Origin: Ureaplasma parvum serovar 3 str. ATCC 27815
GTDB lineage: Bacteria > Bacillota_I > Bacilli_A > Mycoplasmatales > Mycoplasmoidaceae
DNA: 32,000 bases
Direction of reading: 5' to 3'
Assembly (NCBI RefSeq): GCF_000019345.1
Contig: NC_010503.1
Coordinates: 180,001 to 212,000 of the forward strand
Shown here: positions 15,001 through 18,000 of the stretch, in pieces
How the letters are laid out: each line of letters opens with the position of its first letter
How positions within the stretch are numbered: the stretch's first letter is position 1
Program-made: the position numbers

Positions 15001-18000
15001 GCGTTTTTTAATTATTTATTTGAATTTTTGAATGTTAAATTTCAAAATAAACTAAGCAAGCCTGATAAACTTGCTTTTTTTATTGTCTTTTGGTATAATA
15101 TTATTGTCCATTATCTGGTATTTATATTAGGTCTTTGGGCTATAATTCTAAATGTATTATAATATTGTTGAAAACAAAAAACACGCTCCGTTAAAGCGTG
15201 CTTAATGTGTTAGTTTAGGTTTTATTATCTTATTTTCTTAAACTTATTAGGATTTGGATTATTGTTAAGATTATTACTATTAGGTCTGATAATTCCATAG
15301 AATCACCCCCTTTTTTTAAAAGGTTATGGTGTATTCCTAAACTAACAATAATATTATAATATATTTTTTACACTTTGTCAATACTTTTTATATATAAATA
15401 TATAAAAATGTGGTATAATTTAAGTGGCTATTACTTATTTACGACTGGTAGTAGCAAAATCTTTATTATTTCAGTTCCTTAATGGTTGAAATATAAAAAA
15501 GCCACCCTTTAGCAAGGTGGTTTTTATTTTGTCTAATAATCGCTTTTAATACGTTTTAAATATTCGATCTCTTCTTCTAATTTGCGTTGTTTACGTCTTG
15601 ATAGATAACTATGTCTGATATCATCAATAAACGCCTTTGGATCTAATATACCATCCTTAATTAATTTGGCTAGCATTAATCTAAATCTTAGCATTAGCAT
15701 TAATTCAAATACTTTTAATGGAATTGATAACGCTGTTATTAAATATCCAAGCACTGAGAACACTAAACCAAATAATGCGGTTGGGTCTTGTCAGTTGATG
15801 TGTTTTAATTTATCAAACAAACTCTTAATCTTGTCATTGAAATTAAAAAATGGTACAAACACAATAATCATAGCAAACGCAATTACAAATATTAAAATAG
15901 CAATTCATAACATCAAGCGTTTTTTATTAAAGAAAAATAATTCCTTAGTAATCGCTTTGAACTCTTGTTTTGTCATCTTTTATAATCTCCTGTTCTAATC
16001 GCTTAACTTTTTGTTCTTGCTCTTGTATTTTTAATTGCTTTTCTTGTTGTTCTAGTTTTTTTAATTCTTCATCCAATGTTTTGTAATTGTTAGAACTTAT
16101 AACTGCTTTAATATTTTCAACACTAATATAACGATTACGTATTTGTTCAACTAGTATATCTAAGGCTTCGAACTCTTCTTTACTTAAATCCCCGTACTGG
16201 TGCATTTTAGCAACAGTTCGCCATAATGTTTTTAATGTTGGTAAAAGTGTTAACATTGAAATAATTAAATTAATAAATCCAATAGTCATAAAGAATGGAA
16301 AATAAAACTTTTGTTCTTTTACAAATAACACAAATGCGTTATCATTTGGTAGTCCAGCAATTAAATAAGTAGATAATAAAGCTAATCCTAAAAATAACCC
16401 TGAAATAATTGAACTTGTTAAATAAATCAGCTGTACTTGTTTTTTAGAAAACTTCCATTCTTTGTTTTTAAACTTATTTTTATTGTTCATCATTTAAAAT
16501 ACTCTCCTTATTTTGCTTGTATAAATCATTTTGAGCCTTTTTTATGCTTCTTTTTTGTTCGTTAATAGCTTTTCATTCACTTTTTAGTTTGTCTTGTTCT
16601 ATGCGAGTTTTTAGATGTCAGTTTTTGCCTTCTGTTGTAAATCGTCAAAAGAACGGCGATATTGCGAAAAAATCAACGCAACCACAAATGATATAAGCAA
16701 ATAAAACAACTAAAAATAATTGCCATTTTTTCGTACTTCCTAGTTTTGGAAATTTTGATATCATTCAGTCTCATAATGTGGCTTTGTCTGTATATTCGCT
16801 TTCTTTACCAAAAAATACAAACGATGTCTCACCAATTTTAATAAAAAACGAACAAATTAAAAAAATGGTTCATAATGTGGTTAGAATTCATAGTCATAAA
16901 ATACGACGATTAATATATTCTTTCATTAAATTATTCTCCTACATAAATTGTTCTAACACTTCATTCATAATTTAATCCAACTTCAAAGTTTGTAGCAAAT
17001 GTTTTATTTACTATATCTATTAATCACAAATCAACATTAACACCAGATTTTTCAGCATTAACACGAACGACTAAAAATTGAGGCTGATATTGATTTCACA
17101 ACAGGATTTGTTGTTGTGTTTCTCCACTATCAGATAACATGTTATTACGGTCTGTGTTTCTATCAAAAGAAAACGTTAAACTATAATCTTTATCACTTCA
17201 ATCAACACTACTGTTATTAAAATTTAATGATAGATACCATTTAAAAATTACTTCATGATTTGCCATATTTGGAAACGTACGTTTAATATCAGGTCATGGT
17301 ATTGTTTTATTATCGCCATATTCTTCATCACGACCAGTTCATTTAAAATTCTCTGGTAATCGAACACGTCCAGCATAATATCATTGTGAATGAATTTTAT
17401 AGTTGTTACTGCTTTTTTTGTTTTCTAAGTTTTTAATCTTAGATTCAATTGTTGTAATAGTTGAACTATTAGCATTATTTGCTGTTTGTACGCTATTAAT
17501 TTTGTCGTTTAAACTTGAATAATTACTTTTAACTTTATTTTCTAAATTAGATAATGTACTTGATGCTGTTGATTGTTTATTTTCTAATTTAATATACTTT
17601 TGTTCTAAATTATTTTTAGTTTCTTTTAATGATGTTTGCAATTGTAAAAGATTAGATGTATTTTTAGCAATTGATTTATTCATTCTTGGAATAATACCAT
17701 CATTTTCAGGTTTATCAGTGTTTCAATCTAATCGTTCTAGTTTTACAGTGCCAAAAGGTCAAACTGTATCAGAACCTTCTCTATTACCAGCAGATACGTC
17801 ATTAATTAAATATTTTATTAAGTTATCATAATTTTCACGAAAACCTAACATTCCTATTAGTGCAGTGTTTTTAAAACTTTCTAAATTAGATGTTAAAGCA
17901 TCAACATTAGCACTATCACCTTTTTCACCCTTTGGACCAGTTTCACCTTTTGGACCAATTGGACCTTGTATTCCAGGTTCGCCTTTTTCACCTTTAAATA

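Follow-up and report, generated by a model that had tools for sequence, protein, structure and literature searches.

Candidate type I toxin cassettes with a par/Fst-like RNA design in a Ureaplasma prophage

What is the role of a 22-codon gene that has its own promoter, Shine-Dalgarno (SD) sequence and terminator and lies between the two gene blocks of a Ureaplasma prophage? The question was raised by a 32,000-nucleotide (nt) stretch of Ureaplasma parvum serovar 3 str. ATCC 27815 (contig NC_010503.1, positions 180,001–212,000; hereafter the window, in whose coordinates all positions are given), where a first-pass annotation had proposed a type I toxin–antitoxin (TA) module at 15171–15381. We refer to this module as cassette A. 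Its toxin-mRNA-like design is beyond chance and is kept across three diverged cassette types: A, as in the window, and B and C, found in tandem in related prophages. On the sequence evidence, we lean towards the view that it represents a new type I toxin family, borne as cassettes by a Ureaplasma prophage, with a par/Fst-like RNA design and a 3′-convergent antisense partner. The elements of cassette A were located as follows.

15353–15381, minus strand: promoter of the peptide gene, with −35 TTGACA at 15381–15376, a 17-nt spacer and −10 TATAAT at 15358–15353; predicted transcription start site (TSS) ~15347/15346.
15336–15347, minus strand: TGTTAGTTTAGG, the 5′ arm of the long-range helix, with which the mRNA is predicted to begin.
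15288–15323, minus strand: two adjacent predicted SD-masking hairpins, the first CCUUUU/AAAGGG at 15323–15308, the second GGUGAUUC/GAAUUAUC at 15307–15288 with the AUG in its loop.
15303–15312, minus strand: SD sequence AAGGGGGTGA, 4 nt before the ATG at 15298.
15230–15298, minus strand: open reading frame (ORF) of 22 codons plus stop, MELSDLIVIILTIIQILISLRK, with homologous peptides of 23 amino acids (aa) in cassettes B and C.
15208–15219, minus strand: 3′ arm of the long-range helix, CCTAAACTAACA, lying 10 nt past the stop and leaving 4 nt to the terminator hairpin.
15170–15203, minus strand: intrinsic terminator of the peptide mRNA, a hairpin at 15203–15179 and a T-run to 15170; not called on the plus strand.

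All minus-strand elements of cassette A were recovered where the first-pass annotation had placed them. The perfect TTGACA-17-TATAAT promoter scored 12/12 and was one of only two perfect promoters in the window. The duplex of AAGGGGGTGA with the anti-SD was calculated at −15.2 kcal/mol, with the other 30 genes of the window at −8.7 kcal/mol or weaker, making it the strongest of 31 starts. The SD was thus as strong as had been claimed, although its spacing from the ATG was 4 nt and not 5 nt. The ORF encoded the expected 22-aa hydrophobic peptide with a basic tail, and was the only short (15–45 aa), SD-preceded, hydrophobic ORF in the window. A single transmembrane (TM)-like core with a basic tail fits a type I toxin, toxicity being putative. 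The hairpin terminator described after the ORF was likewise present.

The feature that most distinguishes the mRNA is the pairing of its two ends. From the predicted TSS onwards, TGTTAGTTTAGG (15347–15336) matches the reverse complement of 15219–15208 at every base, bearing out the 12-nt complementarity between 5′ end and post-stop region that had been proposed. In 5000 dinucleotide shuffles, no perfect 12-mer complementary to the 5′ end was generated. The helix was present in the minimum free energy (MFE) fold of cassette A (z = −4.5; 0/200 shuffles), with a pair probability of ~1.0, and contributed ~13.8 kcal/mol of the predicted −41.3 kcal/mol.

Among related prophages from metagenomes, three diverged types were found, each of which kept the helix. 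Human-associated metagenome contigs carried the same prophage at ~97–99% identity. In L001, L006, L008 and L099, cassette A was unchanged from the −10 box past the terminator except for one SD base, while the flanks differed. In L007, L015 and L183, two tandem cassettes, B and C, occupied the same site. Each had a 12/12 TTGACA-17-TATAAT promoter, with hexamers and spacing identical to those of A, its own terminator, a strong SD (AAAGGAGG in B, AAAGGAGGTGA in C) and an ORF of 23 codons. The leader common to the types begins TGTTAGTT, and the distance from SD to ATG across them is given as 7–10 nt. The repeated unit reached ~80 bp upstream of the inverted repeat, taking in the promoter and a CCACTTAAATTATA block. 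Cassette types were swapped between otherwise ~97–99% identical phages, being both exchanged and tandemly duplicated.

The encoded peptides, MELSDLIVIILTIIQILISLRK in A, MDKDKLIAILIILIEILISIVKN in B and MTLYEIITLILSTISIIITLVKK in C, aligned without internal gaps, and those of B and C were each 45% identical to that of A. In all three, an uninterrupted I/L/V/T core, polar at residues 15 and 19, ran between a charged N-terminus and a K/R C-terminus, and each had a 15-residue core free of K, N, D, E and R. An open, K/N-free frame this long would be unlikely to arise three times by chance in such DNA, and the ORF was therefore taken as coding.

At several contig ends (L002, L003, L009, L010, L012, L239 and L240), the sequence stopped at or just before the cassette promoter. 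These ends fit assembly breaks at the repeated promoter and leader, which suggests that multi-cassette arrays are common. By analogy, the tandem diverged copies and the breaks at the promoter repeat are reminiscent of type I loci present in several copies.

Cassettes A, B and C shared one predicted fold plan: a closing 5′–3′ helix, an SD-masking hairpin, the ORF and the terminator. The closing helix was 11–14 bp long in each (pair probability ~1.0, ~13 kcal/mol, predicted), and in B it was extended by four further pairs past a one-base bulge. Position 9 was U-A in A and C and C-G in B; position 10 was A-U in A and B and G-C in C; and position 12 was G-C in A and a G.U wobble in C, of a kind compatible with the sense-strand RNA only. 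Because the 3′ arm of B was misplaced when MAFFT aligned the entire mRNAs, covariation was counted on the two arms alone, linked by an artificial GAAA (n = 3 sequences). In this alignment, 94% of cells in the helix arms were paired, versus 19–52% in slid registers. Two pairs had changed on both sides, and the covariation score was reached by 12/500 shuffles. This three-sequence covariation supports the predicted helix, short of statistical proof.

The SD-masking elements differed in sequence as well. The anti-SD was CCUUUU in A, CUUUUCAA in B and CACCUUU in C, and each paired with its own SD, that of B being masked in part only (predicted). The single SD change in L006, G to A, converts a U.G pair into a U-A pair. 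The first-pass annotation had likened the end-to-end pairing to the fold-back that locks translation in hok and AapA mRNAs, and the predicted folds do not support this reading. When the 5′ 13 nt were forced to be unpaired, the SD hairpins of A, B and C remained unchanged. Since they persist with the 5′ end freed, the closing helix does not hold the SD mask in the predicted folds, and for the same reason we liken it to the upstream helix of par/Fst and not to the hok/AapA1 lock.

The G+C content of the window was ~25%, and translation with code 4 (TGA = Trp) yielded long genes. Its FtsY and UPF0122 proteins were exact matches to AAF30547 and AAF30548 (U. parvum). A prophage of ~20 kb, adjoining tRNA-Ile/tRNA-Ala, occupied 8074–29100. 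Its early genes, on the plus strand at 9048–14629, included an integrase-like gene, RecT and a RuvC-like resolvase (phrog_827). Its late genes, on the minus strand from 29021 down to 15533, encoded the terminase (matching AAF30576), portal, capsid, a fibre in which a G-X-Y run resembles collagen, and three small membrane proteins. The peptide cassette sat in the 900-bp convergent gap at the junction of the two blocks, where prophages carry morons and Bacillus prophages carry type I TA loci. In the collection searched, the AF222894 record has no gene call at this locus, and the peptide gene had therefore been missed by standard annotation. Terminators on both sides insulate the cassette:

15502–15520, minus strand: late-operon terminator after the gene of the 147-aa membrane protein, separating the late operon from the cassette; conserved in L001, L006 and L007.
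15054–15076, minus strand: second hairpin/terminator, shielding the cassette against the early operon; on the plus strand, its half doubles as the −35 of the partner promoter described below.

Proteins neighbouring the cassette had very few relatives. No relative of the window prophage was found in the GenBank phage collection by blastn/tblastn with the region, the capsid and peptide B, or in IMG/VR, which was scanned with the leader pattern, the RuvC-like protein, the capsid and the exact string of the module. For Ureaplasma, 'phage genes' have been described by comparative genomics only, no phage having been isolated (PMC13375369). The only distant capsid homologue (62%) lay in a U. urealyticum remnant, L005, which lacked the cassette. 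Upstream in the late block, where the lysis cassette of a Firmicute phage would sit, 15533–16926 (minus strand) encoded consecutive small proteins of 148, 182 and 147 aa. Each was read as two hydrophobic segments with a lysine/glutamate-rich C-terminus and had no PHROG family. The 182-aa protein (15945–16493, minus strand) was also present in AF222894.1, U. parvum serovar 3. Homologues of the 147-aa protein, the one of the three that was searched, were confined to this phage lineage.

The rest of the intergenic gap, 14630–15053, was a mosaic, with extra blocks of 81, 64 and ~89 nt in the window relative to L006. A hairpin in it, ACGCCATTGGGCGT (14929–14942), was similar to the 5′ hairpin of the cassette-B partner RNA and may be a remnant of another cassette. 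After the early-operon terminator, TGTTATAAT (14756–14764, plus strand) was followed by a ATAACGCT...AGCGTTAT hairpin (14756–14830 in all); its pairing was kept through a C-to-T change (G.U) in L006, and its fold was no better than shuffles (z = −0.6). The second perfect promoter of the window, TTGACA-18-TATAAT at 29398–29427 (plus strand), was at the far end of the prophage. Its homologues in L006 (~1457, minus strand) and L007 (~1780, minus strand) carried the cassette-promoter motif TATAATATTAATGT, and that in L006 faced a DUF4011/AAA_11 helicase-like gene which the window lacked.

A type I system requires an RNA antitoxin, and the plus strand was examined for its source. The relevant features were:

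15071–15099, plus strand: convergent partner promoter, with TTGCTT, 17 nt, TATAAT at 15094–15099 and an extended −10 TG at 15091–15092; predicted TSS ~15106.
15106–15203, plus strand: candidate antitoxin small RNA (sRNA), minimum extent, consisting of a 5′ hairpin and then the complement of the toxin terminator hairpin; proposed from the promoter, the absence of a gene and the fold.
15411–15419, plus strand: TGgTATAAT, an extended −10 promoter that is divergent from the toxin promoter and lies ~55 bp upstream of it; TGaTATAAT in L006.

Plus-strand promoters had been proposed at 15091–15099 and at about 15141–15163. TGgTATAAT was indeed present at 15091–15099. At the second site the two TATAAT hexamers (15141–15146 and 15158–15163) were also present, with poor −35 regions. 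The partner promoter, whose TTGCTT matches TTGACA at 3/6 positions, points at the toxin terminator from ~75 nt. The 14-nt motif TATAATATTATTGT occurred in exactly two copies in the window, one in the toxin promoter and one on the opposite strand at 15094. In L006, the hexamers of the partner promoter were unchanged and one spacer base differed. Cassette B, with different downstream sequence, had its own convergent TGtTATAATATTAATGTCC ~37 nt from its terminator. The convergent promoters beside the cassette types carried TATAATATTAwTGT and had no protein gene downstream; none was found on the plus strand below the partner promoter of the window. The promoter at 15091–15099 is thus the best candidate for that of an antitoxin gene, and the candidate sRNA may read on into the 3′ untranslated region (UTR) and ORF.

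Other plus-strand signals were less informative. A GATAAT at 15288–15293 lay antisense to codons 2–4 of A, and a weak −10-like hexamer lay likewise in C and over the AUG in B; these are not significant in 75% AT DNA. The hexamers at 15141–15146, 15158–15163 and 15288–15293 and the TGgTATAAT at 15411–15419 are indistinguishable from chance by sequence. The divergent promoter could give an RNA of ~100 nt (15411–15530, plus strand) ending at the late-operon hairpin 15502–15520, which has T-runs on both sides. As trans-acting antitoxins, two candidates were rejected: this divergent RNA, whose complementarity to the toxin mRNA was not above chance, and the non-overlapping part of the convergent RNA, whose complementarity was not above shuffles.

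Several observations weigh against a type I system. Promoter prediction is the sole basis for the putative antitoxin, and −10-like hexamers are common in 75% AT DNA, with 76 TATAAT in the window. The convergent antisense RNA that was proposed to cross the ORF remains a candidate antitoxin. Duplex energies for A, B and C gave no complementarity above shuffles between the non-overlapping partner RNA and the 5′ region of the toxin mRNA. The sole 10-nt match, AGACCUAAUA (codons 5–8 of A), had p ~0.04 and was absent from C, which has the same partner. No plus-strand terminator was found; the shared hairpin was not called bidirectional because it lacks a U-tract on the plus strand. The module had no Rfam match at gathering score or at E ≤ 10. 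No credible match to the peptide was found in PHROGs, Pfam and NCBIfam (E ≤ 10 for the latter two), PADLOC or a PDB profile search. The known variants number just three and come from a single phage lineage, and no cassette was present in the distant phage relatives L092–L097 (RuvC-like protein 36–44% identical), which have the same convergent layout.

The single PDB match, the TM segment of ND4L (E = 1), was judged to be chance. The exact peptide sequences of A, B and C were absent from the protein collection searched. Scans of genomes and metagenomes with the leader pattern TATAATATTANTGTTAGTT returned 76 and at least 120 matches, essentially all of them chance, the pattern being too short for such collections. 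One true relative, L183, and one look-alike, L039, were found. The latter (4687–4870, plus strand, of Clostridia MAG JAZUPV010000002.1) had the same TATAATATTATTGTTAGTT start, 5′–3′ closure by an 8-bp helix, a strong terminator and a fold with z = −4.5, with no SD and no clear ATG-initiated ORF. It is a chance match of the leader pattern and could be an unrelated sRNA or a distant analogue.

Among the alternatives, the main one, which we hold to be clearly less probable than a toxin cassette, is a prophage 'moron': a small membrane peptide made by the lysogen or late in infection, from an mRNA structured for stability or translational tuning, with no RNA antitoxin. Its role might be superinfection exclusion, membrane permeabilization for release from a wall-less host or cytolysis of the host cell. 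The peptide gene, with a promoter and a terminator to itself, lies where the late operon ends, right after three membrane-protein genes and the fibre gene, and the lack of detectable antitoxin complementarity beyond the overlap is as a moron would have it. The swapping of types between ~97–99% identical phages also fits diversifying selection on a surface or exclusion function. However, known holins are much longer than 22–23 aa, the late-operon terminator (15520–15502) separates the peptide gene from the late genes, and a gene-less convergent promoter is conserved beside both cassette types.

Considerably less probable is a non-coding structured phage sRNA in which the short ORF is incidental. 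The RNA structure is strongly supported, the exact peptides were missing from the protein collection and the locus was uncalled in AF222894, all in keeping with such an sRNA. Yet an ATG at proper spacing from the strongest SD of the region is kept in three diverged versions. Frames of 22–23 codons stay open where stops are frequent, and encode 15-residue cores free of K, N, D, E and R with K/R ends. Moreover, anti-SD hairpins only make sense with a functional SD.

We give scarcely any credence to a DNA-level feature, in which the 12-bp inverted repeats would serve a miniature mobile cassette as terminal repeats or sites of recombination, with the RNA fold as a by-product: cassettes are exchanged and tandemly duplicated, and inverted repeats bound by one protein would co-vary too, but G.U wobble is tolerated in the sense RNA only and the repeated unit extends ~80 bp upstream of the repeat, so that the inverted repeats do not bound it, and the 5′ arm begins at the predicted TSS, the 3′ arm abuts the terminator and no flanking target-site duplications are visible in the window.

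For the type I toxin cassette that we favour, the following mechanism is proposed. The consensus promoter would give an mRNA of ~177 nt. Its first 11–12 nt are predicted, with support from covariation, to pair with the 3′ UTR just before the terminator, hiding the 5′ end; by analogy with the upstream helix of Fst RNA I, this would stabilize the mRNA against 5′-dependent RNases. The predicted anti-SD hairpin of A, B and C would mask the unusually strong SD, so that little peptide is made. From the 15091–15099 promoter, the one part of the putative antitoxin gene that is seen, a small RNA would enter the toxin terminator and 3′ UTR as a cis-antisense RNA, and would keep the mRNA inactive or direct its decay. 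On loss of the antisense RNA, through prophage loss, transcription shut-off or superinfection, the stable mRNA would be translated and the peptide would damage the membrane. The outcome could be prophage addiction or abortive infection.

A broader proposal is more tentative, and we hold it a little short of even. The cassettes would form a family of 22–23-aa toxins, among the shortest known, arranged as exchangeable and tandemly arrayed units at the early/late junction of Ureaplasma prophages. Their 5′–3′ helix would stabilize the mRNA, and a 3′-convergent antisense RNA would control it, possibly by displacing and unmasking the 5′ end. The system would act in prophage addiction or to exclude phages from a near-minimal human pathogen. 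A type I system confirmed in Ureaplasma would extend RNA-antitoxin control to near-minimal genomes, give a first functional handle on the uncharacterized prophage, and provide a compact, covariation-supported model of mRNA 5′-end masking. Diversifying selection is suggested by the exchangeable array of cassettes, and may bear on the exclusion of phages or on competition among strains of a human urogenital pathogen.

How does the cassette compare with known systems? Type I TA systems have been described as narrowly distributed. The statement that none has been characterized in Mollicutes stands: none was found in the literature searched, and neither the type I TA surveys consulted nor the T1TAdb database paper mentions Mollicutes. 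The cassette would be the first type I TA candidate in these wall-less bacteria.

Both hok and aapA1 belong to Proteobacterial families in which 5′–3′ pairing locks the fold that masks the SD, the mRNA becomes active once its 3′ end is trimmed, and the antitoxin is an antisense RNA against the 5′ UTR. Like hok/sok of R1 and aapA1/IsoA1 of Helicobacter pylori, the cassette combines long-distance 5′–3′ pairing of the mRNA with a small, putative membrane toxin and a primary transcript predicted to be poorly translated. In contrast to them, its 3′ arm lies upstream of an intact terminator hairpin, its best antisense promoter candidate is on the 3′ side and its peptides are unrelated. Of the hallmarks of hok/sok (a toxin of ~50 aa, the mok frame, Sok and the fbi/tac elements), only the 5′–3′ pairing was found, with a 22-aa peptide and no Pfam or Rfam match.

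Mollicutes derive from the Firmicutes lineage, in which txpA/RatA, bsrG/SR4, bsrE/SR5 and yonT/SR6 (B. subtilis prophages) and sprA1/SprA1AS (S. aureus) are prophage or island loci. In these, a convergent downstream antitoxin promoter gives a 3′-overlapping antisense RNA. The cassette shares the location and the lineage and, by prediction, the convergent downstream promoter, its antisense overlap being putative. Its peptides are shorter than the toxins of these systems (~29–59 aa) and unrelated in sequence, and we know of no 5′–3′ closing helix of this geometry among them. Peptides of the Fst/Ldr superfamily are ~27–35 aa long.

At 22–23 aa, the cassette peptides are also unlike Fst, with 33 aa, and the Lpt of Lactobacillus rhamnosus, with 29 aa (PMC7472228, PMC5608710). 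They contain neither P nor G, and so lack the PXXXG(C) motif, of which PXXXG is stated to be essential in par/Fst (PMC7472228), and they had no Pfam or NCBIfam match at E ≤ 10. The terminator hairpin was called on the toxin strand only and not as bidirectional, and complementarity of the DRa/DRb type to the translation initiation region had energies no better than shuffles. In design, the likeness is closer. Both par of pAD1 (Fst) and Lpt, like the cassette, have a short TM peptide with charged ends and a toxin mRNA of ~180–230 nt. RNA I of par/Fst owes its stability to an 'upstream helix' in which the extreme 5′ end is sequestered, and has a second element, a 5′ stem-loop, over the SD (PMC7472228, PMC5608710). 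The same succession was predicted here: a 5′ helix in the folds of A, B and C, with two compensatory pairs, and then an SD stem-loop built from different sequences in each, that of B masking only in part. The likeness to the Fst upstream helix lies in sequestering the 5′ end. In par/Fst, convergent promoters flank one terminator hairpin, a layout that the cassette has as a sequence-level prediction (PMC7472228, PMC5608710). Residence on mobile elements, including phages, is common to both (PMC7472228, PMC5608710). The cassette thus resembles a par-type toxin mRNA by its predicted design, yet is not a member of the Fst family. Judged by the modelled folds, par/Fst is the closest known architecture, closer than hok or AapA.

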